Source: Alphaproteobacteria bacterium (GTDB lineage: Bacteria; Pseudomonadota; Alphaproteobacteria; CAAHEQ01; UBA3637). From it: a stretch of 64,000 bases of DNA. Below, one piece after another: positions 6,835 through 64,000 of this stretch (position 1 is the stretch's first letter; the number at the start of each line of letters is the position of its first letter). The stretch is from positions 4,345 through 68,344 of the forward strand of contig JAFXIF010000044.1 in the NCBI GenBank assembly GCA_017533325.1, read 5' to 3'. A model generated the notes under the pieces. That model was not told the DNA's origin, searched no databases, and saw only the letters and a program-made list of their open reading frames with translations. Both the position numbers and the translations under genes were made by a program.

Positions 6835-7073
6835 TAAGTTAATATGGTGACTAAAAAAAATTTTTAAATAGATAAAAGTATTTTGATTTTTTTATTTTTG
6901 TATTATCCTTTTAATGTGTGTTAAAAATATAATGAATTAACCATTAAAACAACATGAGGAACGATTTAAAAAAAATGTTTTTATATTTCAATAGGAAAAT
7001 AAAAATCCGTTGATTTTTTGTCAAAAATATAGTATAATCAAGTAGTTTAATTTAAAATGGCAGCGGGATTAAA

Positions 7074-46926: not shown

Positions 46927-47206
46927 TTGTTTTTCGTTTATATGGATTTCCATAACTAAGACCAACAGGCGCGTTTTCGCTAATCATACAGTCAAAAAGA
47001 AAATAAGGCTCTCCTTGACCTGAAAAAAGTTCATCAAGGTAATATTTTATTTCTTCTTCAACTGATTGTTCCAATTCCCTTGGGGGAATTTTGTGTAACG
47101 GACATCTAAAATCAATCATCAAATCATCTTGAATGCGTTGTAATTTTTTTTGAATGCCGCGTTCAATAATATCGTATCGTTGTGCTTTTTCTTCAAGTGT
47201 TAACAT
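46919..47206 (-). CDS. Hypothetical protein (95 aa)
   Basis: Intact ORF downstream of the T4SS operon terminator. No recognisable motif. Confidence 0.3.
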   Translation of the reverse strand: MLTLEEKAQRYDIIERGIQKKLQRIQDDLMIDFRCPLHKIPPRELEQSVEEEIKYYLDELFSGQGEPYFLFDCMISENAPVGLSYGNPYKRKTIN

Positions 47207-47290
47207 TTAGCCTCCTTAAAATGTTGATTGTTGTTATATATTATACATATAATACAATATTTACATAAGTCAAGAGAAAAATGTATAAAA

Positions 47291-47328
47291 AAAGAGATTT
47301 TATAAAAAATATAAAATCTCTTGGGAAA
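47291..47328 (-). terminator. Rho-independent terminator closing the T4SS operon
   Basis: AAGAGATTTTATA(ttttt)TATAAAATCTCTT followed by a T7 run on the minus strand, 30 nt after the virB11 stop. Confidence 0.6.
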
Positions 47329-47354
47329 ACAACAATACTGAATATAAAAAGAAG

Positions 47355-48344
47355 CTATGTGACTTCTGTCACCGCGCGGATATTTCCATCTCGGTTGATT
47401 TGAACGACTCTTAATTTTTCTTTCATTTCACGATAGGTTTTTTCTCTATCTGTTGTCGGATAAGAGTGTAAAATACGTCCGATAAAAGCTTTATAAGCCG
47501 CATCCGGGTTTTCGGCATGGATAGTGGCAAAACAGTTTTCATGACCTGAACCCATTAATTCCCATAATGCACCTGCGTTGGAAGTTGAAATTTCACCACC
47601 GATAATGGCATCAGGGGTAAAGCGAACGGCAAGGTCAATCACTTTTTTATAGTCAAAATTATTTGTAAGTTCCGTTCTTGGTAAGACAATATGAACTCGA
47701 TTTTTATGCGGCACAATAAGTTCGCGTGTATCTTCAATGGTTAAAATACGTTTATGTGGGTCCAAGACCTTAATTAAATTATTTAAAAAGGTTGTTTTAC
47801 CAGTTGCCGTTGCCCCGGAGATTAAAACATGGTCACCGCGTTTAATAGAAAGCATTAATCTTTCAAAAGGATCATCTGGGTCTTCAACTTGTTTTAATCT
47901 GTTCAGCGGACGTAATCTTTCGCCGACACTTAAACCAAAATCGCTCATTGAAATATTAACGTCTTCTTTATAAACACGAATCGCCATAGCGATACCGCCG
48001 GTTAAATCGTTGTTATCATACATAACGTTTCTGCCGGCAATTCCGGTAAAACGATGTCCGCCTGGGAGCGTTGCATAAACAGTTGGTGTCCCTTGTGTCG
48101 GGTCAAAAGCATAATCATAAGAATTGGCAATAATATACATGATATTATTTAAATATTCTCGTGTTAGTTTTGGATCTTCATAGTAGTGCCATGGATGTGC
48201 ATGACGCCCGCGTAAGCGTAACCAAATACCGCCGGGAGAATCAACCGCAACTTCCTCAACATTATCTTGATTATACCAATAGGAAAGTGGGCGTAGAGCC
48301 GATTCTAAAACCCTATAGGTATCTGCAATCGATAATTCTCCCAT
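47355..48344 (-). CDS. virB11: Type IV secretion ATPase VirB11
   Basis: 329 aa with Walker A ISGATATGKTT and VirB11/TrbB-like length. Last gene of the operon. Confidence 0.85.
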   Translation of the reverse strand: MGELSIADTYRVLESALRPLSYWYNQDNVEEVAVDSPGGIWLRLRGRHAHPWHYYEDPKLTREYLNNIMYIIANSYDYAFDPTQGTPTVYATLPGGHRFTGIAGRNVMYDNNDLTGGIAMAIRVYKEDVNISMSDFGLSVGERLRPLNRLKQVEDPDDPFERLMLSIKRGDHVLISGATATGKTTFLNNLIKVLDPHKRILTIEDTRELIVPHKNRVHIVLPRTELTNNFDYKKVIDLAVRFTPDAIIGGEISTSNAGALWELMGSGHENCFATIHAENPDAAYKAFIGRILHSYPTTDREKTYREMKEKLRVVQINRDGNIRAVTEVT

Positions 48345-48360
48345 TCTTTATCATCCTTTT

Positions 48361-51300
48361 TTAAAACAATCTGTCAGAGGAGCCTGTTTTTGGTAGAACA
48401 GGTGTTACTTTTCTTTCCTCTACAGGTTGTTTTTCAACGCTGTCCCCAGTATAAATCGGTTCATTTGAATCTTCGTCAGAAGAGCCATCTTCATTATTAT
48501 ATTTGTCAGATGGTTTATAGTATTTACTATCATCAACTTCAGAGTTTTCGTCCTCATTAGTTTCTTCGTCTGATTCTTCCTCTTCTTCTTCGGATTTTTC
48601 TTCTTTAGATTCCTTTCGCGTGTCAACCCAAGAAGACGTATCCGGTGTTTGTGCTTCAGTTGAAACTTCTTCAGCTTCTTGGATGTCATCTTCTTCAGAT
48701 CTTAACCATAAATCTTCATTCGGGAAGACGGTTAAGCGCGTGCCTGACGGAACATAAATAACAACAGGAATATTTGCGGAATCTTCGATAAGTTGATCAA
48801 AGATTGTTTGCATAGATTCAATGAAGTTTTCTCTGGCATCATTTGCAGCTTCAGTTTTAGATGAAGTAATCGTGTTGCCATACATATCTTGATACATATC
48901 ATCATTTGTTGCCATCATGTAGGAAATAGCTGATGTAACAACGCTGGTCATAATCGGTTTACCGAATTTTTTAACCAATTCATCATCAAGATAAGCTGCA
49001 ACACCACCACGTCCTTGAGCATCACCTGATGTCCCTTCAAAGGAGAAAGCTCCTCCATCAGGACGGATAAGTCTTTGCCATGTGATTTCAAGTTTTGCCG
49101 CGCGTTTATCATTGCCTTGTTCACCGGCAAATGTTCCAATCAATCTGGAACCGGCCGGAATGATGATATTTCTTCCTTTTTCAGAATAAATATGTCTTTC
49201 AACAATGGCTGTAACAGGCATATCGGCATATCTGGAATCGATAGATCTTGTTAAGACTGCCGGAATTGCTTTGTCTTTCAAAATCATACGAGACATATCA
49301 ACAGGATAAGAAGATACAATTTTATTTACACCGATTGATTTCCAGTCCGCATCAGCTTTTTTACGAGCCATTGCTTTAATTTTTGAATTTGGTGTAATCA
49401 ATCCTCTTGATGCCATGCCGGCTTTCATTCCTTCTCGTTTTTGAGAAAGAATTTCTTGCATTTGTTGAATTTGTTCCGGTGTCGGTTTCAATTTTTTATC
49501 TGCAAAATTCGGACGAATACGACCTTGATCGTCACCTTGAGTGCTTAAGGGGCGTCCATCTAAAGTCATTGGTCTGCCATCTTGCATAAAGCCGACAATT
49601 TCATTTTGGTCATCTAAAATAGAACCATCCGGTGTAACTTGATATAATTTATTTCCGAATGAAATACGGCGTGTTCCGGCTTGTCCGGCTCCTCCTTGTG
49701 CATTTCTTAATGCTTCTAATTCTTCTTCAGAAAGTCCTTTAATACCACATTTATCCAAGCGAAGATCAAGGCCTTTAATTTTACCCATATCATTACCATC
49801 TTTATCTTTCAATAATCCGTTTTCATGAATGGTTGCATAGATTTCGCCATTCAACCCGATAATGGAGCCGTTTGGCATAATAGAAGCAATTTTTTCATTT
49901 TGAAGATTTAAAACATCACAACCTGAAATTTTTCCGAATGTATTTCCGTTGGCATCTACAAGTAGTCCGCTTTCAATATCACTTGGTAATTCGCCGTTTT
50001 CGCCGAGTTGTCCGATAACATTGCCATTTTCATCAACAATGTCTCCGTTTGGTAAAACCTGAGCAATAAATTTTCCTTCTGCATCTTTGATAACACCCTC
50101 AGAAGATAATGTCCCTTTAATATTACCTTTTTCGTCAAACAATAACTCTTCGTCACGGGAAACATTACGACCGATGATTTCACCTTTTTCGTTAACAACG
50201 TTGCCATCTGCGCGTAATACACCGATTTTTTCTCCGTTTTTGTTTACAACGTCCCCATTTAATTTAATTCGGCCGATTGGTTTTCCGTCTTTACCTAAAA
50301 CAAGCCCGCGTTCATGTGTTGCACCGATAACTTCGCCGGTTTTATGATCAACAACAGAACCGTCATTTCGGCTACATCCGATATTGATTCCGTTAACATC
50401 AACCACAGTTGAGTCCGGCATTGTGCGTCCGATATATTTTCCTTCAGGCGACATAACGATACCATTTCTTGTTACGCGACCGATTTTTTCACCTGAAGCA
50501 TTAACCGCCCATTTATCCGGTAAAATACGGCCAACAACCGTTCCTTTTGCATCAATAACTTGACCATTAAAAGCAGCTTGACCGACAACTTTACAATCAT
50601 TTGTAATTAATGCAGAAGGGATTAAGGCCCCTGTAATTTTATAAGTTCCTTCTTTAACCGTTCCATTAACGGCAATTTTCCCTTTTAATCCTCCGTTTGG
50701 AGAAACAATTTGCCCATTATGAATCAATGTCCCCATGAAAGAACCATCTTGTGAAATGGCAGTATAGAACGGCAAAACTGCACCGGCTAACGGTTCATCT
50801 TTGCCTAAAATAGTTCCGTCATCCAAAATGCGTAATGTTTTGCTGTCTGTTGCATCCAAAATATCACCGGAAAGAGTTGTTCGACCCAAAACATCCCCGC
50901 GATATCCAAACGGTAATCCTTGTTGGACAAGGCCACCTTTTTGAGGCATTGTGTTATATAAAGAACGATCTTGGATATCCGCAACAGAACCATCACTAAG
51001 CGCTCTTCCCGTCATTTGATTTGCATTGCCGATAACAGCGCCATCTGCAGCAACAGTTCCAAGAATTTTTGCATCATCATCAACAGCTACACCAAATGGA
51101 GCTTTTCCACCAGCCCAAAGATTATCGGAGGTGAGTGCAAAACCAAGAGGTGTTTGAACGGCAATGTTTCTTTCATCTTGATTAAAGATGGTTGCAGCAG
51201 TTTGTGTTTGACCGATTAAAAGGCCTGATTTCCCGACAAAAGCAGAAACAGGTAACGTCATACCACGAATATTGCCTTTTTCATTATAAAGGGCTCTGAT

Positions 51301-54300
51301 ACCTGAAGTGGAAGATTCTTTTTTACCTCTTAAGAAAATTGTTCCACTTAAGCTTTCGCGACCAACCGTGTTTAATGCATTTGATACAGCCGGTCCTGAG
51401 TAAACAACATTTCCTTGGATTTGTTTAATTAAGTTTGTTGCAAATCCGTTTGTCATTACCGAACCGAGAGGTTTTGAATTTCCGATGGATAAAATACTTC
51501 CGTTTGTTGAAATGATTCCCATTGTTTTGGCCGTGCTGTTTTCCGCAACAAATAAATCTTTGTCAGCCAATCTGGCAATAAAGTTCCCATCTTTTGCAAC
51601 AGTTTGCGGTGCAATGACTAAACCTTTTACTTGTCCTTTCCCATCAATAGCTTCACCGTATTCATTGATGAGATAAGAAAATTGATTATTGTCACCATAT
51701 CCGACTGAATTTAATGGGATAAATGTGCCTGTTATATCTCCCTTTGCATTTGCAATTCGGTTGTCAGATAATACATGGCCTAATTGTGATTTTGAAAGTC
51801 CGATGCGTCCGTCAGATTGAAGCAGTCCGGCAAACTTTCCGTTATTATCCACAGCAATCCCTTGTGGCAAAACTCTTCCGATTACTTCATCCATGTTATT
51901 GTAAATATAGTCTGAAGCATAAAGATAACCGGTATCTTTTTCAGCTGTAATGGTGTTATTAATTGACATGTAGCCGAGTAATTTTCCATTTGGTTTAACT
52001 GCAATACCAGTTTTTACAAGATAACCGATTTGATTCCCGGCTTTATCCAGACCAATTCCATTTGACATTAATCTTCCGATAGATCTTGAATTTTTGCCGT
52101 ATAAATCTGCATCAAAACTTGTCCATCCAATTAATTCATTCTTTGTATCAACATAAACGCCGAATGGAATCATTCTTCCGATAACGCCTTCAGAATTGAT
52201 AACCAATCCAAATGGGGTTGCTTGTCCGGCAATATTCCCATTTTTATCCATTATAGCCCCTGTTACACTTGGATAACCGATTAATTCTTCCGGAGAAAAA
52301 GCAAGGCTTAAGCGTTTAAAAACACCCCCGATAATTTTTTCATCAGATGAAATGGCAATCCCGTTTGCAAGAATTTTGCCGATAACTGTTTTCTTTGGTG
52401 AAATCACTTCGCCTTTAGGTGTAACCGAGCCGATTTCTTTACCTAAAACAGATAAAACTTTTCCATGAGGCATTTCAAAACCGATTACTTTTCCGTCCTT
52501 ATCCGTAACGGTTTTATTTGCTCTGATTGCCCCGATAATATCTCCGTCAGCATTCTTTAATGTGCCATCAACACCCATAGTGCCAAGATAATTATTATCT
52601 AAATCAAGAAAGGCTGTTTTATCAGGAATGAGAGTTCCGATAATTTTTTGAGTTTCACCGCTTATAGCAGTTAAATTTGGTAAAACACGGGCAAATCTTT
52701 CTCCTTCTTGATTCAATGCAAATCCGATTTTTGAATTGTAACGACCAAGAATCATACCATCTTGAGAAACGATAACTCCATCAGGTGGGATAACACCTAA
52801 AAATTTTCCGTTTGATGCAGAAACAATACCATCTTGGTCAACAGTGCCGATTTCATTTCCGTGGGCGTCATAAACTTTATCACCCATAACGGTCCAACCG
52901 GTCGGATTTCCGTTATCATCTAAAACAACTCCGTTAGGTGTATTTTGATTTCCGGATCCGACAACAGTTCCCAAAATTTCTTTACCATTTAAAGAAATAA
53001 CAGATCCATCTTCTTGAAGACATCCGATAATCTTTCCTTTTAAATCCATAACTTTACCATCAAGGCGCACACGACCGATAACAACACCTTCATTGTTTTT
53101 GACAACACCTTTGATAGCTAAAGCACCGATAATTTTTCCATTGTTATCAACAACAGTTTTATCCGGTGTTATACAACCAAACGGTTCATTATTCGCATCT
53201 GTTAAATCACCACCAATTGTGACAAGCCCTAATAAACGACATCCGTCAGCAATGGCAGAGGCTCTTGGAACAACAACACCGATAATGCGGTTTTGATCAT
53301 TTCGAACATAACTGTCCGTCATCACTTTGCCAACTTGTTCAAGTGAATCGTTAATGGCAATCCCGTTTGGGAAAACAGACCCGACTTGTTGACACCCAAA
53401 TCCGATGACGCGACCTTTTGGTAAAACAGAACCCACAGTCTTTTTACCAGCTGTTACAGATCCGTCCGGATTGACACAACCGATAACTGCTCCTTGGGGA
53501 CCAACGGCTTTACCTTCTGAATTTATAAATCCGATTGGATTGCCTTTTTCATTAATAACAAGCCCTAATTGAATAGCGCCGCCAATGTCCGTGCCGTCAT
53601 TGTTAATAACGCTTCCGTCAATTAATGTTTTTCCGACAGTTTGATTATATGAATCACGAACTTCACCATTTTGCATGATTTTGCCGGTTAATTGACATCC
53701 CGGAGCAACGGCAACCCCTTGAGGAATAGTTCCGCCAATAAGATCATTTGTGCTATTCACAACTAATCCGTTTGGTTTAACCATACCGATAACATTATTT
53801 GCTGCATCCATAACTGAACCGTCCGGAACAATTCCACCGATAACGTTACCTGTTAAATCGGCAACCAAACCCCATGGTCTTAAAACCCCTACTACACGGT
53901 TATTCAAATTGGCAACGGCACCGTTTGAAAGCGGTTTACCGATAACGGCACCTTTTTCATTTACAATTGTTCCGTCTTTTAATAATTTTCCGATTACATT
54001 TCCTGTCATATCCATAACCGAAACAATTGGGATGGCAGCCCCTAAAACATTTAATTCGGTATCAACAATGGTGTCATCTCCTAACAACCGACCGAGTTTG
54101 TCCCCATTTTCGTTAATTACATCACCATTTGGAGCAATTTTTCCCATGACCTCATTTTTTAAGTTAAGAGGTAATTTTTCGGGAACGGCAATAGCAACGA
54201 TTTTACCGTCTTTGTTGATATATAATCCGTTTTCAGTTGGTTTTATGACTTCACCGTCAATAACAATGGAGCCGTCTTCACCAACCGGATGCAATTTTCC

Positions 54301-54984
54301 ATCTAATCCCATTGCATATTTTTGTTCTTTTTCAGCATCATCCTTTGAAACTGATTCGCAAATAACACAATCTTTTGAATCGGTTGATTGAGCTTTTACT
54401 TGAACGGTTGTTTTCTTTTCTCTGTCAGAAAAACCGGCGGCAGTTGCAGAATCTTCTTCCCATTGAATAGTCAAAACATTTTGGATTTGTCTTAAAGAAA
54501 CAGGATTCCATAAAACTTTAATCAAGCATTCTTGCCCACTTGCCAAAGATTCATTTTCTTTACAAGTTGTTTCCATTGAAAATCCGTCTTGTTGATTTTC
54601 AAGAAATGTTGCCCCCTTGTAAAGAACAGCTCCGTTTTCGGCAGTTAATTTAATCAGCGCTTCGACTTGTGAACCGATAACAACATTATTCATATCAATT
54701 TGTTCAGGGACAACTTTTAAAGTAACATCCCCTCTGGCAAATCCTTGAAATTGACCGCCTTGTTCGTCTTTTTGGGTTTGGTATTCATCACCCCAGTCAA
54801 TATTTGTTGTTGTGTCTTGAACGGGCGCTTTTTCAGAGATAAAGGAAAGCGCTACAAAAAATACAATAAGAAGAAACAAACCGCCGAATAAAAGTTTCCT
54901 GTTGCTTTTTTTTACATATTGCTCACTAGAGCTTAATCCTCTGTTTTCTTTCATTGCTAACCCATTTCTTTTCTGTCGGAACAA
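48361..54984 (-). CDS. virB10: Giant VirB10-family protein (CagY-like) with a ~1700-aa degenerate repeat region
   Basis: 2207 aa. N-terminal cytoplasmic segment and single TM, then >100 degenerate ~12-13-aa repeats (xDGxVxDxxGxxIGxV), a C-terminal VirB10/TrbI domain (IPAGSRLIGTFAGEQ…VVIYVPSGTRLTVF), and an acidic Ser/Glu/Asp tail. Confidence 0.7.
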   Translation of the reverse strand: MFRQKRNGLAMKENRGLSSSEQYVKKSNRKLLFGGLFLLIVFFVALSFISEKAPVQDTTTNIDWGDEYQTQKDEQGGQFQGFARGDVTLKVVPEQIDMNNVVIGSQVEALIKLTAENGAVLYKGATFLENQQDGFSMETTCKENESLASGQECLIKVLWNPVSLRQIQNVLTIQWEEDSATAAGFSDREKKTTVQVKAQSTDSKDCVICESVSKDDAEKEQKYAMGLDGKLHPVGEDGSIVIDGEVIKPTENGLYINKDGKIVAIAVPEKLPLNLKNEVMGKIAPNGDVINENGDKLGRLLGDDTIVDTELNVLGAAIPIVSVMDMTGNVIGKLLKDGTIVNEKGAVIGKPLSNGAVANLNNRVVGVLRPWGLVADLTGNVIGGIVPDGSVMDAANNVIGMVKPNGLVVNSTNDLIGGTIPQGVAVAPGCQLTGKIMQNGEVRDSYNQTVGKTLIDGSVINNDGTDIGGAIQLGLVINEKGNPIGFINSEGKAVGPQGAVIGCVNPDGSVTAGKKTVGSVLPKGRVIGFGCQQVGSVFPNGIAINDSLEQVGKVMTDSYVRNDQNRIIGVVVPRASAIADGCRLLGLVTIGGDLTDANNEPFGCITPDKTVVDNNGKIIGALAIKGVVKNNEGVVIGRVRLDGKVMDLKGKIIGCLQEDGSVISLNGKEILGTVVGSGNQNTPNGVVLDDNGNPTGWTVMGDKVYDAHGNEIGTVDQDGIVSASNGKFLGVIPPDGVIVSQDGMILGRYNSKIGFALNQEGERFARVLPNLTAISGETQKIIGTLIPDKTAFLDLDNNYLGTMGVDGTLKNADGDIIGAIRANKTVTDKDGKVIGFEMPHGKVLSVLGKEIGSVTPKGEVISPKKTVIGKILANGIAISSDEKIIGGVFKRLSLAFSPEELIGYPSVTGAIMDKNGNIAGQATPFGLVINSEGVIGRMIPFGVYVDTKNELIGWTSFDADLYGKNSRSIGRLMSNGIGLDKAGNQIGYLVKTGIAVKPNGKLLGYMSINNTITAEKDTGYLYASDYIYNNMDEVIGRVLPQGIAVDNNGKFAGLLQSDGRIGLSKSQLGHVLSDNRIANAKGDITGTFIPLNSVGYGDNNQFSYLINEYGEAIDGKGQVKGLVIAPQTVAKDGNFIARLADKDLFVAENSTAKTMGIISTNGSILSIGNSKPLGSVMTNGFATNLIKQIQGNVVYSGPAVSNALNTVGRESLSGTIFLRGKKESSTSGIRALYNEKGNIRGMTLPVSAFVGKSGLLIGQTQTAATIFNQDERNIAVQTPLGFALTSDNLWAGGKAPFGVAVDDDAKILGTVAADGAVIGNANQMTGRALSDGSVADIQDRSLYNTMPQKGGLVQQGLPFGYRGDVLGRTTLSGDILDATDSKTLRILDDGTILGKDEPLAGAVLPFYTAISQDGSFMGTLIHNGQIVSPNGGLKGKIAVNGTVKEGTYKITGALIPSALITNDCKVVGQAAFNGQVIDAKGTVVGRILPDKWAVNASGEKIGRVTRNGIVMSPEGKYIGRTMPDSTVVDVNGINIGCSRNDGSVVDHKTGEVIGATHERGLVLGKDGKPIGRIKLNGDVVNKNGEKIGVLRADGNVVNEKGEIIGRNVSRDEELLFDEKGNIKGTLSSEGVIKDAEGKFIAQVLPNGDIVDENGNVIGQLGENGELPSDIESGLLVDANGNTFGKISGCDVLNLQNEKIASIMPNGSIIGLNGEIYATIHENGLLKDKDGNDMGKIKGLDLRLDKCGIKGLSEEELEALRNAQGGAGQAGTRRISFGNKLYQVTPDGSILDDQNEIVGFMQDGRPMTLDGRPLSTQGDDQGRIRPNFADKKLKPTPEQIQQMQEILSQKREGMKAGMASRGLITPNSKIKAMARKKADADWKSIGVNKIVSSYPVDMSRMILKDKAIPAVLTRSIDSRYADMPVTAIVERHIYSEKGRNIIIPAGSRLIGTFAGEQGNDKRAAKLEITWQRLIRPDGGAFSFEGTSGDAQGRGGVAAYLDDELVKKFGKPIMTSVVTSAISYMMATNDDMYQDMYGNTITSSKTEAANDARENFIESMQTIFDQLIEDSANIPVVIYVPSGTRLTVFPNEDLWLRSEEDDIQEAEEVSTEAQTPDTSSWVDTRKESKEEKSEEEEEESDEETNEDENSEVDDSKYYKPSDKYNNEDGSSDEDSNEPIYTGDSVEKQPVEERKVTPVLPKTGSSDRLF

Positions 54985-55009
54985 ATATTTAAATGATTTT
55001 CAAAGAAGT

Positions 55010-56788: not shown

Positions 56789-56905
56789 TAAAACAAAAAT
56801 ATTTAAAAAGTCTACAAAAAAATGAAAAAAGATGTAATTTTAATGGAAAAATTTTTTTTAGAGTTTTTTGTGAGTGTTTTTAGAGGAGTTTTTTTAAAAA
56901 AATTA

Positions 56906-57604
56906 TTATGAATCAGCTTTTTTTATCACGAGCTGAATAACTGTAAATCCAAGTGGGTTTTTAAGTCTTTCTTCCCAAGTTAATCCTTCACGAACGGGTT
57001 TGAAAGCAACATTCATTGTGACAACCCATCTTGATTTTTTCGGTTCGCTGGATAAGTGTTTCATTTCCGTAAATTCAACTTCTGCACGCCAAATGTTTTC
57101 ATTCTTGTTGGTGCGATAAGGATTAACAACTAAAATTTTGACATTACGGGTTAATCCTTCTTCTTTTGCTTGTTGGATCCAATCTTCGGCATATTCAGTA
57201 AATTTTGTATAGACCGTAGGTTCGCTCATCCAGTTAATTTCCCCATCAATTCCGGTTCGTCTTTCTAATTCTTGAATGTTTGAACCGATATTAAAATAGG
57301 AGAGCAAATATTGTCTGATAAAGGACTCAGTCAATGTTTGCATATTCATTTGACTAAAATTAGGTCGAACAACATTAACAACTTGTTCGTTTTTATTAAG
57401 TGTTGTTAAAAAAAATGGTTGAACTCTGACAATAGGCATTAAAGATGTAAGAGCAGTGATAAGCATAATAGTTGTTAAAGTTGAAACAACTAAAACAAGC
57501 GCAAACGTTCGCGCCATCCAAAGATAACGTCTTTCTTTAACGGCTTCTTCTGATAAATCTTGTCCTTGTTTTTTTTGTTGGACTTTTTGATTGCTCATTG
57601 TCAT
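56906..57604 (-). CDS. virB8: VirB8 (paralogue a)
   Basis: 232 aa. Cytoplasmic N-terminus, single TM, periplasmic NTF2-like domain pattern (ERRYLWMARTFALVLVVSTL…). Confidence 0.65.
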   Translation of the reverse strand: MTMSNQKVQQKKQGQDLSEEAVKERRYLWMARTFALVLVVSTLTTIMLITALTSLMPIVRVQPFFLTTLNKNEQVVNVVRPNFSQMNMQTLTESFIRQYLLSYFNIGSNIQELERRTGIDGEINWMSEPTVYTKFTEYAEDWIQQAKEEGLTRNVKILVVNPYRTNKNENIWRAEVEFTEMKHLSSEPKKSRWVVTMNVAFKPVREGLTWEERLKNPLGFTVIQLVIKKADS

Positions 57605-57622
57605 AAGAATAAATATTTCTTG

Positions 57623-57814
57623 TTAAGATAACCAATCCGGAAGAGCAGGGGCTTTTTCAAGTTCAAGGCATGCACAAGGTGATTTTTTTAATTCAGAATA
57701 ATCCGGACCGATTCCAACAGGTTCTTTTTCATAAACACTACCGCAAGCTGCAGCCAAAACGGTCAATCCTAAAACAAATAAAACAACAAAATATTTTTTC
57801 ATTTTTTTCCTCAT
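57623..57814 (-). CDS. VirB7-like small lipoprotein
   Basis: 63 aa with lipobox LAAACGS. Located between the two virB8 paralogues, as in rvh clusters. Confidence 0.45.
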   Translation of the reverse strand: MRKKMKKYFVVLFVLGLTVLAAACGSVYEKEPVGIGPDYSELKKSPCACLELEKAPALPDWLS

Positions 57815-57891
57815 ATTTTTGTGAATTACAAACTCAGTTTATCGAAAGAAAAATAATTAATCAACCAAAAAAAACATTATTTTAAAATATT

Positions 57892-58590
57892 TTATTTTTT
57901 GACAGCTTCATCATATTTTTGTATGTAAAAACCAAAAGGGTTGGCAAAGGTTCGTGAATAAATGTGTCTGTTTGGATAATGCCCGACGGTGATTGTTGCC
58001 ACCCGCTGTTGAACGCGCGGTTTAACAATCGGGTCATAAGGATTATAAATAAAAACATCAAATTCAATGGTATATGTATTACCAAGTTTTGAGATATTTG
58101 TGATTTCAACACTTTGGGTTTCTTTTGCCGTAGAAATTTGTTTAATCTTTTCTTGTATGTTTTTTGAAAATTTAGCATAAACAGCCGGGGAAGATAGCCG
58201 TCTGATTTCTCCGCGAGCTCCCCATCTGGATGTCATTTCATTTTTATCCGCAAAATAAGAAACTCTTCTGTCAATATAATATCTGATTAACATTTCATCT
58301 AACAATTCACGATTAGCCCGATTACTGTGAGATTTTGAATCCATTAATCTATTTGCCGGTAAAGTATCGATTTGGATGTGATCTAACGTATTCATGGGAG
58401 AGGGTAAAATTTGAGCAATCACTTTTAATTTTGGCGCCATTTGAACCAATGTTAAAACAATGAACAAGTTAATAGCAATGGAAATAGCCGTCAATGTCAT
58501 CCAAAATTTTGCCCAATAAAGTGCAAATTTTCCTCGAGTTTTTTGGTCCTTGATAAAATAAGAAAGCACTAAAGACCTCCTTCTAAACAT
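57892..58590 (-). CDS. VirB8 (paralogue b)
   Basis: 232 aa with the same topology as VirB8a (KFALYWAKFWMTLTAISIAINLFIVL…). Confidence 0.55.
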   Translation of the reverse strand: MFRRRSLVLSYFIKDQKTRGKFALYWAKFWMTLTAISIAINLFIVLTLVQMAPKLKVIAQILPSPMNTLDHIQIDTLPANRLMDSKSHSNRANRELLDEMLIRYYIDRRVSYFADKNEMTSRWGARGEIRRLSSPAVYAKFSKNIQEKIKQISTAKETQSVEITNISKLGNTYTIEFDVFIYNPYDPIVKPRVQQRVATITVGHYPNRHIYSRTFANPFGFYIQKYDEAVKK

Positions 58591-60122
58591 CTTTTGTTTA
58601 TTTTTGTGTTATATGCTTTTTTGATGTCTTCCTTGTTCTTTTTTTCAAGTTCTTCATAAAGGGCATTTTCTGCTTGTTTTTCTTTTAATAAATGGTCTAT
58701 TTCTTGAGCATTTATAACCGTAAAATTAACACTGCCGTTGATGTCTTTTTCAAGTGCATTAACATAATTAAAATCCTGATAGGCTTGAGAAAAATACATG
58801 ATATGTTTAAGCTGTCTGTATTCTTCAGAATCTTTTTCAAGCGAATCAAGAGCATTTAATTGCTCAATATAAGACATTTTTAAATAAGTTTTAAATGAGT
58901 CCGGCTTATTTTTTGTATCCCCAATATCGGAATGTTTTTTTGTTATTTTATCTCGAACAGTTTGAATGTTTTTGCTTTTAAGTTGTAATAATTCTTCTTC
59001 TAAACGACTAACAGATTCAATATTATCAGCTTCAATAGCTGTTTGAATGCCAAGATCTTTTAGTCTGCTGTTTAATTCGTTAACAGCGGAAGATTTAGCA
59101 TTACTTGTAACGTTTAATGTATTTTCTGCACTTGTTTTTTCTTTTTTTATTGCTTGATAAACATTTAATCTGTTGTTTTGTTGGCTGGCGTCCATATGTC
59201 TCATGTCTTCATTTAAGACCAAGCTTTTGGGCAAAAATGTTTTTGCCATTTCACCATTTTCATTATATGTGTTAAATCCGCTTTGAATAAATTTTTGCCA
59301 GGGTTGAGGCCATTGAGGAAAAACAGATTTTGATTTTGCAGGATCTTCAGTAAACCACATAATTTCATGAGCCGGCGGTAATGCTTTGGGTGGTTTGGGG
59401 AATGTTTTTTGTGTTTCTGATAATTTTTGAAGTTGATCCGGGGGCAATGATGATAAAAATGTTTTATAGGCCGATTCATTTTGTTCAAAATTATTTTCAG
59501 CAGTGATACCGTTTATTCGACCGGTTCTCCCTAAAATTTTATTTACATCTTGCAAAAAAGAGTTCACTTCGTCTGCATAGACATATTTTTGATCTTCCCA
59601 TAAATCAAAAGATTTCCCCTCTTTTAGTTTTCCATATTTCTCTGGATTTGCATAAACATCTGTTAAAACTTCTTTCCCTAAATACCAGTTGGCAAAAAGT
59701 TCTGTTTGTGCTTTTTTCCCTGTGTTTTTTTGTTGAGGCATACTGTTTAAAATATCAACTGTTAATTTGAGCTCTCTGTCATCATATTCTTGAGTGATAT
59801 TTTTCCAAGCCGTTTTGGGATCTTCATAGACATCGGAGAGCAAATTGATATTACATGCCTCCATTGAATTATATTTTTGATTTATTAAATCAACTTGAAG
59901 TTTTTCTTGCTCTTCTTCTTGGTATCGTTTTTTTAAATTTCTAACTTTAATTTGCATAGCATGCAGTTGTTCAAGATATATTATTTCTCTTGTATAATCA
60001 TCAGATTCAATGGCTTCTTCGGTTTCTTGAGAAGCAATTTCAATAGGAGCTGTTGCATGAGTAAAACTGATAAATGAAAAAAATGAAATACCTGATAATG
60101 CTAAAAATAAAAATGGTTTCAT
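58569..60122 (-). CDS. T4SS-associated secreted coiled-coil protein (517 aa from ATG 60122)
   Basis: Signal peptide MKPFLFLALSGISFFSFISFTHA. The start overlaps the upstream gene's stop in ATGA. The ORF track extends to 60161 with a TTG start. Confidence 0.45.
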   Translation of the reverse strand: MKPFLFLALSGISFFSFISFTHATAPIEIASQETEEAIESDDYTREIIYLEQLHAMQIKVRNLKKRYQEEEQEKLQVDLINQKYNSMEACNINLLSDVYEDPKTAWKNITQEYDDRELKLTVDILNSMPQQKNTGKKAQTELFANWYLGKEVLTDVYANPEKYGKLKEGKSFDLWEDQKYVYADEVNSFLQDVNKILGRTGRINGITAENNFEQNESAYKTFLSSLPPDQLQKLSETQKTFPKPPKALPPAHEIMWFTEDPAKSKSVFPQWPQPWQKFIQSGFNTYNENGEMAKTFLPKSLVLNEDMRHMDASQQNNRLNVYQAIKKEKTSAENTLNVTSNAKSSAVNELNSRLKDLGIQTAIEADNIESVSRLEEELLQLKSKNIQTVRDKITKKHSDIGDTKNKPDSFKTYLKMSYIEQLNALDSLEKDSEEYRQLKHIMYFSQAYQDFNYVNALEKDINGSVNFTVINAQEIDHLLKEKQAENALYEELEKKNKEDIKKAYNTKINKRCLEGGL

Positions 60123-60901
60123 TGTTGATTTTCCTCCGGCAACTCTTCTTTGGGGTTCCAATATGTTTTATGGCGTTTTGCAGTCGCAAGACCCAGAAGG
60201 GCATTGTATTGTAATTGTGCAGCTCTTAATTGTTTTTGAATCATGAGTAATTTTGCCCATGTAATTTTTGCAAAGGCAGTTGTCATTAAAAGTTTGGTTT
60301 TATTTTCATTGCTTTCCAATGCCCCTTGATTAGAAGCTTTTTTAGATGAATCATCAATTTTTGTTTCCATATCATCAATGATCTTAAATATTTCTTTTGT
60401 TTGGTGTTTTAATACCAATATTCTTGCTAATAACTGAAGATTGGCTTGTTGGCGTATATATTGTCTTTTTTTAACAAAATTATAATCCCCCTCATGATCG
60501 GCAAAAGGTTGATCCGCATAGACCTCCATATTGCTTTTCATAATATTTTTAATCGTTGATGTTGCAGGGTCAGCTCGTTTTACAACTATTTCTTTTGGGG
60601 GTGTTCCTTTGGGAACAAAATCGCCAGGGGAGGCGTTTAAAATATCTAAAATTGTTGTTGACCCGCCTTGAATTGTTGAAATCGTGTCATTTACAATGGC
60701 TGTTGCGCGTTCTGAATAATAATGGCCTTGTTTTAGTACTTCGGCTACTCCTCTTGAAGCAGTGTCAGTTACACTTCCGGGTTCCAAAATTGGCCCTCCG
60801 ACACCGGCAATCCAACAAGGGTCACACGGCAAACAAATAGAATAAGCCGATAAAGATGTTGAAAATGTTAATATAAAAAGAAGGGAAGAAATTATTTTCA
60901 T
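60119..60901 (-). CDS. T4SS-associated secreted protein (260 aa)
   Basis: Signal peptide, Cys-rich mature N-terminus (CLPCDPC). 4-nt overlaps on both sides. Confidence 0.4.
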   Translation of the reverse strand: MKIISSLLFILTFSTSLSAYSICLPCDPCWIAGVGGPILEPGSVTDTASRGVAEVLKQGHYYSERATAIVNDTISTIQGGSTTILDILNASPGDFVPKGTPPKEIVVKRADPATSTIKNIMKSNMEVYADQPFADHEGDYNFVKKRQYIRQQANLQLLARILVLKHQTKEIFKIIDDMETKIDDSSKKASNQGALESNENKTKLLMTTAFAKITWAKLLMIQKQLRAAQLQYNALLGLATAKRHKTYWNPKEELPEENQQ

Positions 60902-61614
60902 TTTTTATCTCCTTCAGTGTCTTCTGGCGCACCAATTTTTTTAAGTGTTAAAATAGTCGGTTGGTCTTTGATAAATTGTTGAACAACATCTACTTCCATT
61001 TGAACAATTTGCAAAATGATTTGCGAAGCAACCATTTTTATTTGAGCTTTAATATTTCGGTTGAGCATGGCATTGCTTTGTGTTTGATTACAACCTTTTC
61101 CGGAAGCAACTTGCATGGATTGCATGTCTTCAATAAAAAGAGGTCGAAGTTGCTGAGCAAGCGAGTAAGCTTCAGCTGCAACTTCTGAAGCAAAGTTAAC
61201 CCTATTTTGAAGTTTTGTTAGGGCAGATTCTTTATCCCCTTCTTGCAAAAAGAAGTTTTTTTTCAACATGTCCAAAGCTGTTTTATACTTTTCTTGTGGA
61301 GAAATATATGTTGATTCGAAAAGCTTCATAATATTTGCTTCTAAATAATCATAGGTCTTTGTTGTTATTTCTGTTTTTTTGTTTGAAGGTGCATTAGAGC
61401 AAGAGGCGTTTCCGGATCGAGTATTATTTGCGATCTCTTCTTGTGTAACAACTTCTGCGCCTAAACTTGTAGTCAGTTGTGTTGCAATATTACTGCCTGC
61501 AAGTAGAGGAATATTTTTTATATCAGTAACGAGGCATTGACTAAAGGCTGTATGACATAATAATCCAGCGGCTAAAAAAGAAGAAAACAGATGTATTTTA
61601 AAGTTTTTTTTCAT
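60898..61614 (-). CDS. Secreted alpha-helical protein, possible VirB5/TrbJ-like minor pilin paralogue (238 aa)
   Basis: Signal peptide, with size and helical/Q-rich character similar to VirB5. The assignment is an inference. Confidence 0.35.
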   Translation of the reverse strand: MKKNFKIHLFSSFLAAGLLCHTAFSQCLVTDIKNIPLLAGSNIATQLTTSLGAEVVTQEEIANNTRSGNASCSNAPSNKKTEITTKTYDYLEANIMKLFESTYISPQEKYKTALDMLKKNFFLQEGDKESALTKLQNRVNFASEVAAEAYSLAQQLRPLFIEDMQSMQVASGKGCNQTQSNAMLNRNIKAQIKMVASQIILQIVQMEVDVVQQFIKDQPTILTLKKIGAPEDTEGDKK

Positions 61615-61625
61615 TTTTTTCTCCT

Positions 61626-62384
61626 TTAATCTTCTTCAACGATTTTTCGTTGTTTATCTTGCATTAGTAATGTGCTGTTGATTTCTAAAATTGAGGATTC
61701 AATAACTAACAATTCATTAAGAAGAACAGCTATTTTTTTATCTAAAACCGATAATCCGTTTTCAAGGCTTTTGACATCTGTTCGGGCTTTTATATTGGAA
61801 GACATACTTTCTAATTCTTCTTTTTGTTTATCCATAAGAGCTAACACTTTATCAGCAATAGCTAATCCATGATGCAAAGAAACATATCGTTTATGCTGAA
61901 TAAATTCTTGGGTGTTAACATATTTTGCATCTTCAAATGGGTCAATTTTAACGATTGCATCACTTTCAAGGTCTATTTTATCTTTTTCATTTAGAGAATT
62001 TTGTGCTTGATAATCTACCAAATAAGTGCTTTTAACAATTTGATGGAGTTTAGAAAGATTGGGTTCCTCTTTTGTTGATTCTTGTAGAAACATTTGTGTA
62101 AAAGTTTCATCTGTATAAAAAGCAACATCATCGCCCGTTAAGAGCGGAGAGTTATCCGAAGTTATTATTTCATGTCTGATAACGCCGGGTTGACCATAAT
62201 TTTTGTTTGCAGCTTTTTGATACATGGCAATAAATTTTGCAATTGTTGCAGATAATCTTTGATACCCTGCTTGAACAGGTGCCAATGGAGCCATTAATAT
62301 GCTGGTTGTTACACCGGCTTGAACTGGTGTATTTAAACAGGAGAGAACGATAACTGTTAATAAGAATGATTTAAATTTCAACAT
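61626..62384 (-). CDS. Secreted alpha-helical protein, possible VirB5-like paralogue (252 aa)
   Basis: Signal peptide and predicted coiled-coil C-terminal half. Confidence 0.35.
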   Translation of the reverse strand: MLKFKSFLLTVIVLSCLNTPVQAGVTTSILMAPLAPVQAGYQRLSATIAKFIAMYQKAANKNYGQPGVIRHEIITSDNSPLLTGDDVAFYTDETFTQMFLQESTKEEPNLSKLHQIVKSTYLVDYQAQNSLNEKDKIDLESDAIVKIDPFEDAKYVNTQEFIQHKRYVSLHHGLAIADKVLALMDKQKEELESMSSNIKARTDVKSLENGLSVLDKKIAVLLNELLVIESSILEINSTLLMQDKQRKIVEED

Positions 62385-62393
62385 GTTATCCTC

Positions 62394-63158
62394 CTAATCA
62401 AAAAATGAACCAACAATTCCGCCGACAGCCTGTATGGCCATCCCACCAACCACGTCTTTAAAAGAGTTGTTAGTATCTGTAACGTAATCTGCAGAACTGA
62501 TGGCTGTCAGCATATTATTAGTGGCTGCTGTTAAAACAATTGCATTATAAATTTGAGCGGTACTCATTTTAACGCTGGTATTATTTGAAACAGTAGAAGA
62601 GTAATTTGTTGTTTTGTTTGTGGTATCAGACACTTGGTTATCAATATTTTTTTTGCCGCTTAAATTTCTAGAGGCCGCATTTTTATGAATGGCTGCTAAG
62701 GCGTATCCAAATGTTGCAACTTCAACCAAAGCTCTTTCTCTTTTATTTTGTGTTTCAGCACTGTTAATAATACCAGCTTCTTCGGCTCTGCTTTTCCCGT
62801 CTTCTGTTTGAGCCGGTAATAAGGTATTCTTGAAAAATTCACTTCCATTAATACCTTCAGGAATGGATTCAGTTGATTTTGCATCTTCAGAAGAAAGTGA
62901 TGCATTGACACCTTCGGAAGGTTTATTATTAGCTATAAATTCCAAAGAATCATTACTAAAATTGTTGCCAAGTTCTCTGTTTTTACTGGATGTTTCCAGT
63001 TGGGAATTATGTTTTTCATCCTCCGCATCTTTATCGGCATCTTTTTGAGCATTTTGACCACTCTTATATCCGCCACTGTCACTAATTGGAATGGCAAGGG
63101 CATTTTGAACGGCAAAAGAAAAGAAGACTAAAAGAAAAATAAAAACTAATTTTTTCAT
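62394..63158 (-). CDS. Secreted protein with C-terminal glycine-zipper segment (254 aa)
   Basis: Signal peptide, S/T/N-rich middle region, C-terminal VVGGMAIQAVGGIVGSFFD. Confidence 0.35.
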   Translation of the reverse strand: MKKLVFIFLLVFFSFAVQNALAIPISDSGGYKSGQNAQKDADKDAEDEKHNSQLETSSKNRELGNNFSNDSLEFIANNKPSEGVNASLSSEDAKSTESIPEGINGSEFFKNTLLPAQTEDGKSRAEEAGIINSAETQNKRERALVEVATFGYALAAIHKNAASRNLSGKKNIDNQVSDTTNKTTNYSSTVSNNTSVKMSTAQIYNAIVLTAATNNMLTAISSADYVTDTNNSFKDVVGGMAIQAVGGIVGSFFD

Positions 63159-63931
63159 TCAAGACCTCCATCTGCTTTAATCGCATTGATTGTTGAATAT
63201 ATGCTTAAGGAATTTAACTCAAGTGCTGATAAATCCAATGCAAAATAACTAGCCCCAATAACATTAAAAAGAATATCTGATTCAACTCGTTTTGTTAATG
63301 TTTCTGAAACTGTTTTCGGATCTTGATCATTTAAAGCGGATTCTGTAGCTTCAAAATTTGCGGTTGTATTAATAATCGCTGCTGCATCAGCATAGGAATT
63401 TGCGATACCTTCAAATTGAGCCTTGGTGACATGTTGATGAATGTCACCCACCTCCATGATGCCTGGTTTTTCGTCATTGTCAAGATAAAAACATTTTTTT
63501 ACACCATCCGGAGTTTTTAAATCATTGCATATTTTTTTATTTTCTTCTCTTTTTGTTAATCGATCGATCGGATTTAACTCATTAACCTTAGTCATAATGT
63601 CAGAAGTGCCCTTTTTGGGTTTAACAAAACCACTGCCTGCAACCTCTTCTTCATCAGATGAAAATAAATCACCAACATAGTCTGCTCCTTGTTCCGCCCA
63701 GCCTCCAACTGTATCCGTGGCACTTTCAATAGCGCCATCTAGAGTATTGGTGGCGGCTTGTGTGGCTGAACTGATAGCGGTTGTTGCAGTTCCAATAACG
63801 GTATCCACAGTTCCCACAACAGCATTTTCAACATTATCTATAGTTGTCATAGCTTTATTTGCAAATTGTCCTAAAGCCGATTGCTCAAAATAATTAGGCA
63901 ATCCATTTATCATATTCTGAGCTTGCATCAA
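63155..63931 (-). CDS. Hypothetical T4SS-operon protein (258 aa, Ala/Thr-rich N-terminus)
   Basis: Intact ORF with a 4-nt overlap with the downstream gene. No clear signal peptide. The operon may continue beyond the window edge. Confidence 0.35.
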   Translation of the reverse strand: MMQAQNMINGLPNYFEQSALGQFANKAMTTIDNVENAVVGTVDTVIGTATTAISSATQAATNTLDGAIESATDTVGGWAEQGADYVGDLFSSDEEEVAGSGFVKPKKGTSDIMTKVNELNPIDRLTKREENKKICNDLKTPDGVKKCFYLDNDEKPGIMEVGDIHQHVTKAQFEGIANSYADAAAIINTTANFEATESALNDQDPKTVSETLTKRVESDILFNVIGASYFALDLSALELNSLSIYSTINAIKADGGLE

Positions 63932-64000
63932 TCCCCTTAAATTTTCTTCCGTTGTGGCATGTTCAATGGTTGATTGCAGATTGGGTGTATAATTAAGATT

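Follow-up and report, generated by a model that had tools for sequence, protein, structure and literature searches.

What kind of type IV secretion system (T4SS) is encoded by an operon that ends in virB11, carries two virB8 genes on either side of a VirB7-like lipoprotein gene, and begins with six genes for exported proteins? The operon lies on the minus strand of a 64,000-nucleotide stretch of DNA, here called the window, from Alphaproteobacteria bacterium (GTDB lineage Bacteria; Pseudomonadota; Alphaproteobacteria; CAAHEQ01; UBA3637; assembly GCA_017533325.1, contig JAFXIF010000044.1, positions 4,345 to 68,344 of the forward strand), where it extends from position 47355 to the window end. 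A preliminary description, made from the sequence alone, had likened it to the rvh system of Rickettsiales. We propose, with moderate confidence, that the locus encodes the "outer half" of a VirB-type (P-type) T4SS that has been domesticated and is inherited vertically on the chromosome of an uncultured gut alphaproteobacterium. Its design appears to be that of an expanded secretion system not described so far, and not of the rvh type.

The twelve open reading frames (ORFs) are all co-directional, in the order g1 to g6, VirB8b, VirB7-like lipoprotein, VirB8a, VirB9, VirB10, and VirB11. Pfam matches above the gathering thresholds to VirB8 (twice), CagX, TrbI, and T2SSE show that the P-type core families are present, and the operon encodes the outer-membrane core set (VirB7-type, VirB9, and VirB10), two VirB8 proteins, and VirB11. 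Reading frames overlap by ATGA at g1/g2, g4/g5, and g5/g6 and by TAGTG at g6/virB8b. Thirty-three bases past virB11, the operon is closed by an intrinsic terminator (47285-47322, minus strand; 13-bp A/U-rich stem, 5-nt loop, U7), whose RNA fold has a dG of -13 kcal/mol and a z of -5.7, with 0 of 200 shuffles folding equally well; a consensus terminator scan missed this hairpin, since the scan needs at least three G-C pairs. All twelve genes are intact, and the likely true starts of g6 (60122), virB8b (GTG, 58569), virB9 (56749), and virB10 (54954) agree with the calls on near-identical contigs. On the 3' side of the terminator, a promoter-like site and an AAGGAGG ribosome-binding site (RBS) precede an unrelated ORF of 95 amino acids (aa), followed by peroxiredoxin and htpG genes on the other strand. 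The preliminary description had reported twelve co-directional genes, coupling through several ATGA overlaps, a terminator after virB11, and no virD4 following it, and all four points could be confirmed.

The ratio of nonsynonymous to synonymous substitution rates (dN/dS) was 0.02 to 0.07 for the core genes versus 0.13 to 0.32 for g1 to g6, figures that are rough due to near saturation of dS (0.75 to 1.4). The genes g1 to g6 evolve three to five times faster than the core, and the core genes (those for VirB7-type, VirB9, VirB10, both VirB8 proteins, and VirB11) are under strong purifying selection. The GC content of the operon is in line with that of the surrounding genome, except for the Gly-rich virB10, and neither an integrase nor a relaxase nor flanking repeats were found beside it. 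The rest of the window contains housekeeping genes (NAD salvage, rho, sucCD-like, ileS, alr, RNase E/G, and pgm) and no T4SS gene, with a resolvase gene elsewhere in the 64 kb.

The operon is shared by the contigs that carry an identical VirB11 (L001 to L006; related loci are numbered with the prefix L) and by three GTDB genomes (L007 to L009), two of which carry SGB labels; the isolate name of L008 contains Yak_Rectum. Five related loci have folD, surA, and lptD on the 5' side of g1, just beyond the point that corresponds to the window edge, where the preliminary description had expected that missing parts of the machine might lie; the genes there do not belong to a T4SS. A search with g6 led to two more distant loci, L016 (GCA_054276675.1, 35% GC, g6 42% identical) and L015 (42% GC, g6 28% identical), in which lptD-surA-folD are followed by genes for five exported proteins (253 to 312 aa), g6, VirB8, a lipoprotein of 59 to 69 aa, VirB8, VirB9, and a VirB10 of 2,213 to 2,335 aa. 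This full site layout is common to L007 to L009, L015, and L016, across a GC range of 34 to 42% and down to 28% g6 identity. The order VirB8-VirB7-VirB8-VirB9-giant VirB10-VirB11 is further kept in L012 (56% GC), L013 (46%), L014 (43%), and L017 and L018 (37%), where VirB11 is 69 to 78% identical to that of the window; a g6 homologue stays adjacent to virB8b in L013. In these distant loci, which come from short-read scaffolds, N-runs or frameshifts interrupt the giant gene, and spurious antisense genes are called inside it. From the conserved layout and site across near and distant relatives we infer that the locus is an old, vertically inherited chromosomal feature and not a mobile element. 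A mobile-element origin was rejected in view of conserved synteny and purifying selection.

VirB10 (48361..54954, minus strand; first called as 48361-54984) is 2,197 aa long and matches Pfam TrbI at 115 bits, Bflower_2 at 211 bits, and Bflower at 65 bits, with both beta-flower families (clan CL0395: PF21784 and PF21785) passing their gathering thresholds (211 versus 38 bits for Bflower_2 and 64.6 versus 25 bits for Bflower). A short cytoplasmic tail at its N-terminus is followed by one transmembrane (TM) segment (aa ∼20-40) and then by a region of ∼200 aa with an ASH/Ig-like match (aa ∼84-163) that at 20.9 bits is below threshold; ASH was detected above 1e-3 in 2 of 23 VirB10 relatives. Next comes a repeat region of ∼1,500 aa (aa ∼250-1760, nt 49675-54207) with 15% Gly and a dominant period of 17 residues, in which Pfam recognizes beta-flower domains of the 5-fold and 4-fold kinds, with Bflower_2 found in 8 to 10 stretches. 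We counted 45 GxxhG anchors in the repeats, again with a dominant 17-residue spacing, and at ∼85 aa per five-hairpin flower the region would hold roughly 17 flowers. The repeats are followed by a linker, the TrbI domain (aa 1891-2084, nt 48703-49284), and a 110-aa acidic E/S/D tail (nt 48364-48702). Matches in the PDB, to ComB10, Xanthomonas VirB10, CagY, and TrwE, were confined to the TrbI part. The beta-flower fold was described in 2023 from AlphaFold models, with its function unassigned, and shares a clan with Tubby C-terminal domains; the motif at its hairpin tips is [DNEQ]xxG (PMC10584680). We found no literature joining VirB10 with the beta-flower.

Such proteins form a family. The linker plus TrbI was used to query 1.84 billion representatives exhaustively (clusters at 50% identity). 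The closest relatives were giants, namely at least 17 clusters of 2,085 to 2,406 aa and at least 14 of 1,400 to 1,950 aa, with normal-sized VirB10s (500 to 630 aa) ranking only below about E 1e-42. Giant beta-flower VirB10s account for at least 30 clusters, and Bflower_2, Bflower, and TrbI were all present in each of the 23 giants tested. Orthologues are 2,197 to 2,335 aa long, and the stretch of ∼1,700 aa from the TM segment to TrbI is conserved in length. The repeat region is colinear between lineages (50 to 90% identity); at ∼50% identity, its 1,500 aa contain no more than about 11 gapped positions. Because virB10 has no DNA tandem repeats, its repeats align nearly without gaps, and its dN/dS is 0.065, the protein looks like a scaffold of calibrated size rather than a variable surface. 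CagY-like variable repeats were rejected on the same absence of DNA tandem repeats and the near-gapless colinearity.

The Cag system of Helicobacter pylori (CagY/CagX/CagT, Cag3, CagM, and CagH/I/L) likewise has a giant VirB10 with repeats N-terminal to a TrbI-like domain and several system-specific accessory proteins without homologues in minimal systems. In contrast to CagY, the repeats of the window protein are beta-flower hairpins rather than CagY modules, and they are conserved in length instead of being variable through recombination (compare PMC6761968). DotG of Dot/Icm belongs to the VirB10 family, has a C-terminal TrbI, and reaches 1,000 to more than 1,500 aa through internal repeats, its pentapeptide repeats numbering 1 to 13 with variation by species or strain (PMC6761968). 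As in DotG of Legionella and Coxiella, an internal repeat region enlarges a TrbI-bearing protein here, but the ∼88 beta-hairpin units of the window VirB10 are positionally conserved, and the rest of the system is of type IVA (VirB8/9/11) and not IVB. A C-terminal TrbI (aa 1891-2084) behind ∼1,500 aa of repeats is thus a trait of the CagY/DotG type, whereas the number of repeats does not vary through DNA-repeat recombination.

An antisense ORF of 213 aa lies inside virB10 on the plus strand of the window (53750-54391). In L012, four reverse-strand "genes" are called at 4351-9150 in place of most of the giant virB10, which is also split by N-runs in both L012 and L014, and many "short" database matches are fragments. 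Because of such antisense calls (L012) and N-run splits (L012 and L014), giant VirB10s are systematically fragmented or miscalled in public data.

VirB9 (55010..56749, minus strand; first called as 55010-56788) is a protein of 579 aa in which a CagX region (47.3 bits, nt 55721-56497) is connected by a Q/S/P/Y-rich linker to a C-terminal SPOR (peptidoglycan-binding) domain (29.2 bits, nt 55019-55174). SPOR scored 19.1 to 28.4 bits in VirB9 of L012 to L016, with four of the five reaching the 21-bit cutoff and L013 (19.1 bits) staying below it. The protein is 64 to 75% identical between distant lineages, its best PDB match, a weak one, is Xanthomonas VirB9, and no literature mentioning VirB9 together with a SPOR domain was found. 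The VirB7-type lipoprotein (57623..57802, minus strand) has 59 aa, with a lipobox read as LAAAC|G. Its mature peptide has ∼40 aa, CGSVYEKEPVGIGPDYSELKKSPCAC...LPDW, and the lipoprotein is 79 to 97% identical to its orthologues; the classical P[ILV]NK motif was not seen in it by eye. VirB11, the last gene product of the operon (47355..48344, minus strand; 329 aa, Pfam T2SSE), gave a full-length match to NCBIfam TIGR02788 at 133.8 bits, below the 249.95 cutoff, and has Brucella VirB11 (2gza) as its best PDB match; with 98 to 99% identity among close relatives and 69 to 78% among distant ones, its dN/dS is 0.02. The composition of the operon is non-canonical, as the preliminary description had stated, although the giant beta-flower VirB10, the VirB9-SPOR fusion, and the difference in rate between g1 to g6 and the core had been overlooked there.

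The two VirB8 proteins are paralogues with only 24% identity (1.7e-9). VirB8b (57892..58569, minus strand; 225 aa from GTG; Pfam VirB8 E 6e-9 for the ORF 57892-58590) has an N-terminal TM segment, an NPFG motif, a GGAGG RBS, and a GTG start that overlaps the g6 stop, and is 40 to 87% identical to its orthologues. VirB8a (56906..57604, minus strand; 232 aa; Pfam VirB8 E 2e-14) carries NPLG and is 58 to 91% identical to its orthologues. In the comparison with L015 and L016, VirB8a is the better conserved copy (58 to 68% versus 40 to 58% identity). The NPxG motif is kept in both copies in all eight of eight lineages, VirB8b showing the variants NPFG, NPVG, NPMG, and NPLG.

A duplicated VirB8 with VirB7 between the copies is also what invites comparison with rvh. 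In Rickettsia typhi the order is rvhB8-II, then rvhB7-rvhB8-I-rvhB9-II-rvhB10-rvhB11, then rvhD4; rvhB9-I precedes rvhB8-II and rvhB9-II follows rvhB8-I, and the fast-evolving RvhB8-II, encoded 5' of rvhB7, is without the NPXG dimerization motif, the conserved RvhB8-I being encoded 3' of it (PMC4676284). Duplication of RvhB4, RvhB8, and RvhB9, multicopy RvhB6, and the lack of VirB5 are hallmarks of the system (PMC11077975). The locus could accordingly be a true member or sister of Rickettsiales rvh, with VirB8-VirB7-VirB8 derived from a shared ancient duplication and the other rvh islets located elsewhere. In its favor, the gene order equals that of R. typhi, running from a divergent VirB8 through VirB7 and a conserved VirB8 to VirB9, VirB10, and VirB11; of the two VirB8 copies, the 5' one has diverged more, which is also the case in rvh; VirB5 is not recognizable; several VirB6-like genes occur, if only in a related subclade; and the system is a scattered, chromosomal one of P-type.

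Several features nevertheless separate the two. Unlike in rvh, both VirB8 copies here keep the NPxG motif that RvhB8-II has lost; there is a single VirB9, and g6 rather than VirB9 precedes VirB8b; virB11 is followed by the terminator, the 95-aa ORF, peroxiredoxin, and htpG instead of virD4. The window VirB10 is ∼4 to 5 times larger, VirB9 carries SPOR, and six exported accessory genes stand ahead of the module. In a phmmer search against the PDB, VirB8a had three weak VirB8-family matches (E 0.24 to 0.58, possibly including the solved RvhB8-II chain) and VirB8b had none. Related loci have flagellar genes and a GC content of up to 56%.

A further separation comes from the nearest normal-sized relative, which has a canonical operon and one VirB8. 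Among the normal-sized VirB10 relatives, L019 (GCA_964521375.1, 68% GC) has a complete classical cluster in the order HTH regulator, VirB2 (TrbC), VirB3-like, VirB4 (798 aa), exported proteins of 278 and 547 aa, a 58-aa lipoprotein, one VirB8, VirB9 (458 aa), VirB10 (579 aa), VirB11, SLT, VirD4, and, farther away, a TraI-like helicase. Its lipoprotein (CDGYFEKTPVGIGSDAHELRKSPCAC...LPQW) is homologous to the mature VirB7-type peptide of the window and of the same type, C-x-x-[YF]EK-x-PVGIG...SPCAC...LP-x-W; its VirB9 is 49% identical to the window VirB9 and has an alignable SPOR-like C-terminus; and its exported 278-aa and 547-aa proteins stand where recognizable VirB5 and VirB6 would be expected. 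These two proteins (5174-7665 in L019) each have one N-terminal hydrophobic segment and no Pfam or NCBIfam match, and a classical VirB6 at the position before VirB7 may be missing from the whole subfamily and not just from the clade with giant VirB10s. In contrast to the window operon, L019 holds VirB2, VirB3, VirB4, SLT, VirD4, and the TraI-like helicase in one cluster, with a single VirB8, a 579-aa VirB10 without beta-flowers, and two exported accessory proteins instead of six.

The single VirB8 of L019 is 36% identical to VirB8a (2e-42) and 27% identical to VirB8b (4e-22), which exceeds the identity of VirB8a and VirB8b to each other. Because it is closer to each copy than the copies are to one another, the duplication probably arose inside this T4SS family, independently of rvh, and the resemblance to rvh is for this reason probably convergent. 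A relative that shares the VirB7 type and the SPOR-like VirB9 end and yet has a canonical virB2-11/virD4 operon also argues against common descent with rvh. Membership in rvh is thus not supported by these comparisons, and we regard it as a distinctly improbable explanation; the term "rvh-like" used in the preliminary description holds for the gene order, which mirrors that of R. typhi, but not for the NPxG motif kept twice, the single VirB9, the missing virD4, and the kinship to L019. The simplest reading would be that a conjugative-type ancestor was domesticated, with VirB8 duplicated, VirB10 expanded, and the locus split.

L019 raises another explanation, namely that the window operon is a decaying remnant of a conjugative element (an ICE [integrative and conjugative element] or a plasmid T4SS) from which virB2-6, virD4, and the relaxase have been lost. 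L019 does look conjugative, with VirD4, SLT, and a TraI-like helicase adjacent, and a resolvase is encoded elsewhere in the window. But the same chromosomal neighbors recur across lineages of very different divergence, the twelve genes are intact with dN/dS of 0.02 to 0.32, the 6.6-kb virB10 ORF is kept open and conserved in length, GC fits the surroundings except in virB10, and no integrase, relaxase, or repeats flank the operon. We therefore give decay hardly any credence and retain the domesticated, vertically inherited machine as the preferred reading.

What, then, are the six proteins encoded ahead of the core? All carry conserved cysteines, and none has an internal TM segment. An N-terminal hydrophobic segment resembling a signal peptide, judged by eye and not with a predictor, is present in g2 to g6 and, in the case of g1, visible only in homologues. 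The preliminary description of six secreted, non-membrane proteins is in keeping with this, except that gene 1 continues past 63931: the window edge cuts off its 5' end, and its frame is still open at base 64000. The first gene, g1 (63155..64000, minus strand; dN/dS 0.21), has orthologues of 258 to 319 aa with a signal peptide (319 aa in L009) at the matching position in L007 to L009, L015, and L016; an Ala/Thr/Gly-rich N-terminal half with a conserved Cys pair is followed by a helical C-terminus ending in GG[LF]. g2 (62394..63158, minus strand; 254 aa; dN/dS 0.32) has the mature N-terminus IP(I/V)SD, a low-complexity middle, and a Gly-rich hydrophobic C-terminus, and is 20 to 63% identical to its orthologues. 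g3 (61626..62384, minus strand; 252 aa; dN/dS 0.13) has a helical C-terminal half. In g4 (60898..61614, minus strand; 238 aa; dN/dS 0.29), cysteines C27, C72, and C175 are invariant in the alignment and GCNQxQ...NRNxKA motifs are conserved. g5 (60119..60901, minus strand; 260 aa) has a Cys-rich mature N-terminus, an invariant RxYIRQQA helix, and a C-terminal helical hairpin; its AF2 model, from a shallow alignment of close relatives, is poor (pLDDT 47.7), with only the hairpin at 140-189/198-240 reaching ∼60 to 73. The most conserved of the six, g6 (58569..60122, minus strand; 517 aa), occupies the virB6 position of canonical operons, yet has no TM segments, and its structure is confidently predicted as all-alpha, with no structural match.

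These proteins had no Pfam, NCBIfam, or PDB sequence match, and no VirB5, VirB2, or VirB6 Pfam match was found in 31 orthologues and neighboring accessory proteins, which bears out the earlier view that they are not ordinary VirB5, VirB2, or VirB6 proteins. We rejected VirB5, VirB2, or TrbJ as identities for g1 to g5 on the lack of Pfam, NCBIfam, and PDB matches, including matches to solved VirB5/TraC. PDB profile searches revealed no sequence similarity of g1 to g6 to Cag accessory proteins. Paralogy among the six could not be demonstrated, with all-versus-all BLAST and hhalign comparisons (4- and 6-sequence profiles) nonsignificant; the best hhalign pair, g2 and g4, reached 32% probability with the signal peptides included, and helix patterns common to the six by eye (R-x-x-[YF]...A...A) are a lead only. 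In distant lineages, g1 to g5 gave local BLAST matches of 22 to 33% only, and aligned g2, g4, and g5 are 20 to 34% identical to the window proteins. In profile comparison, g6 showed weak similarity to the 547-aa protein of L019. An IPVxD-like N-terminal motif is presumably common to g2, g4, and the 278-aa protein of L019. Because order and sizes are kept down to 28% g6 identity and dN/dS is 0.13 to 0.32, g1 to g6 are real genes.

In L016, the g1 orthologue (6011-6787) has a FliD_C match below threshold (23.3 versus 25.4 bits, E 4.8e-5) that no other g1 orthologue has; the match could stem from composition, or it could point to a helical protein of the cap-like kind. In L008, the g5 orthologue (6606-7492) is split into ORFs of 105 and 190 aa while the other eleven genes are intact, which may reflect either a frameshift or an assembly error in this yak-rectum metagenome-assembled genome.

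Occupying the slots of the L019 278-aa and 547-aa proteins, g1 to g6 may be understood as diversified exported structural or distal components. An alternative is that they are secreted substrates, toxins or effectors, or else periplasmic chaperones, merely cotranscribed with the machine. Their fast evolution, export signals, and lack of homology to structural T4SS proteins would fit this idea. T4SS substrates, however, are normally taken up from the cytoplasm and have no Sec signal peptide. The order, number, and sizes of the six genes are fixed down to 28% identity and they are coupled to virB8b; a g6 homologue lies adjacent to virB8b in L013, and g6 weakly resembles the protein before VirB7 in L019. 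We accordingly assign a low probability to a role as passengers.

More credible, but still unlikely, is an apparatus like Trw, which would serve adhesion or surface display without a coupling protein, with g1 to g6 as variable surface or pilus parts binding a host or partner cell. Bartonella Trw sets the precedent: variable pili are formed from duplicated VirB2 and VirB5 homologues, with no protein translocation (PMC4676284). Similarly, no coupling protein is linked to the module, virD4 being found in none of the giant-VirB10 loci, and fast-evolving genes for six exported accessory proteins, multiplied or diversified, lie 5' of the core. On the other hand, the absence of VirD4 is a local and not a genome-wide observation, a VirB2-like pilin was not found, and g1 to g6 are single-copy positional orthologues under purifying selection rather than tandem variants. 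Trw has tandem, recognizable VirB2 and VirB5 variants and keeps VirB3, VirB4, and VirB6 in its locus, whereas the accessory genes of the window are unique, single-copy, and non-homologous by sequence.

If the locus is the outer half of a domesticated VirB-type machine, as we prefer, its parts could be arranged as follows. From the TM/TrbI layout and canonical topology, VirB10 would be expected to have an inner-membrane anchor and to insert into the outer-membrane core. Its beta-flower array, probably multicopy as in other VirB10 rings, would make up a large scaffold, fixed in its geometry, between the inner and outer membranes. The machine would on this view be an "expanded" T4SS by analogy with Cag (with CagY) and Dot/Icm (with DotG), while SPOR would pin the core to peptidoglycan. 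g1 to g6 would be exported structural or surface components in the VirB5 and "VirB6-position" slots, with the exported proteins of 278 and 547 aa of an L019-type operon as their probable ancestors, and would form the distal, target-contacting part (pilus, tip, or stalk). VirB3, VirB4, a VirB6-like protein, and perhaps VirD4 would be encoded elsewhere, as in Rickettsiales, and the machine may serve to adhere to another cell or to pass proteins into it, be that cell a host, a protist, or a bacterium.

Several observations weigh against this picture. VirB4, which is a universal T4SS component, and VirB3, VirB2, and VirD4 were found neither in the 64-kb window nor within ∼10 kb around the module in any giant-VirB10 locus, and for this reason the completeness of the machine is unproven. 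The window operon itself has no recognizable VirB5 or VirB6 nearby; that virB2-6 and virD4 are lacking locally had been noted before and is borne out in the window. The beta-flower array may be periplasmic or may lie on the surface. The structural role of g1 to g6 is drawn solely from position, export signals, and evolutionary rate, the last of these affected by the near saturation of dS noted above; g1 to g5 do not significantly resemble VirB5, one another, or the 278-aa protein of L019, the g5 model failed, and the g6 fold is without match. Past virB11, L014, L017, and L018 encode several unknown proteins, a divergent HTH regulator resembling the one in L019, a 66- to 81-aa double-TM protein, and polytopic proteins of 650 to 745 aa, but the TrbL/VirB6 match of one L014 polytopic protein scored 21.1 bits, below the 25.9 cutoff, and NCBIfam gave nothing on the polytopic proteins of this subclade. 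With two adjacent, weakly VirB6-like genes in L014, the polytopic genes hint at a second islet of T4SS parts. A metagenome scan with VirB8a returned one short contig.

In the higher-GC subclade, a conserved accessory cluster adjoins virB11 in L013 (12653-18712), L014 (13302-19237), and L017 and L018 (12.5 to 19.3 kb). Its products are a protein of 267 to 888 aa whose shared N-terminus reads AQRF(L/I)NIYRQ, together with a lipoprotein, a TM protein, and a regulator of the double-HTH_3 type that resembles the one 5' of virB2 in L019; no counterpart was found in the window.

Taken further, and only tentatively, the features described above could define a third architectural class of "expanded" T4SS after Cag and Dot/Icm, specific to host-gut-associated Alphaproteobacteria. 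It would combine a ring of VirB10 subunits of 2,200 residues each, forming a beta-flower scaffold that is rigid and calibrated in length, with a VirB9-SPOR core pinned to peptidoglycan, a VirB8 duplication convergent with rvh, and a distal assembly of six exported proteins not seen before, through which a partner or host cell would be contacted; we see this as possible, though not as the probable outcome. T4SS architecture is known from few models (R388/pKM101, Xanthomonas, Cag, and Dot/Icm), and a fixed-length, 1,500-residue beta-flower spacer in VirB10 would, if real, be a new way to span or extend the envelope. It would also give the beta-flower fold its first functional context and with it a concrete role to test. 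rvh has been treated as a signature of Rickettsiales, its odd VirB8 duplication being unexplained; an independent VirB8-VirB7-VirB8 layout in a second T4SS that is domesticated and scattered suggests that the duplication solves a general problem and offers a second system in which to study it. For the carriers, which are uncultured Alphaproteobacteria of the ruminant gut, a conserved contact-dependent machine would be a lead to lifestyle. Our literature search found nothing tying a T4SS to the gut lineages CAG-239, Rs-D84, and Enterousia, and nothing relevant for RF32; papers on Holosporales and Hepatincolaceae did not inform the question. Rs-D84 is reported to have neither flagella nor a TCA cycle, whereas the window has sucCD-like genes.

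The system is also hidden by public annotation. NCBI calls the identical VirB11 (MBQ3035100.1 and MBR6730525.1) "Flp pilus assembly complex ATPase component TadA", relatives of VirB8a and g6 appear in public records as "hypothetical protein" or without a name, and assemblers and gene callers often break virB10 into pieces. The T4SS is not recognizable from these records.

Several observations concern the surroundings of the operon. The 95-aa ORF directly past the terminator (46919-47206, minus strand) has its own promoter-like site and no Pfam or NCBIfam match, and appears to be a unit separate from the operon. It is conserved with ∼90% identity in L007 and L009 and 88% in L008, where it is cut by the locus end, and a gene of 95 aa is also called at the matching position in L001 to L006. 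Farther downstream, L001 (12265-15846) and L002 (12263-15853) have a 923-aa autotransporter and a resolvase inserted between peroxiredoxin and htpG. This insertion is strain-variable, being found neither in the window nor in L003 to L006 despite the identical VirB11.

Flagellar genes (flaF, flgI, flgK-like, fliX, and motAB) adjoin the T4SS module in L011 (3176-12134) and L012 (13197-18616), while none were found in the 64-kb window; the lineages that carry the T4SS may thus differ in motility and lifestyle. At 5069-11422 the window encodes four proteins without a Pfam match, of 401 aa with ∼6 TM segments (minus strand), 165 aa (minus strand), 245 aa (plus strand), and 1,204 aa (plus strand, soluble), which have no similarity to genes near the T4SS in L011 to L014 and are candidate lineage-specific proteins, possibly effectors. 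The first part of the window (162-5023) is a compact NAD salvage locus with a pnuC-like NMN transporter, nadE, NAPRTase, a cytidylyltransferase-like protein, an isochorismatase-family protein, and an NrtR-type Nudix regulator, which is consistent with a reduced, scavenging metabolism.

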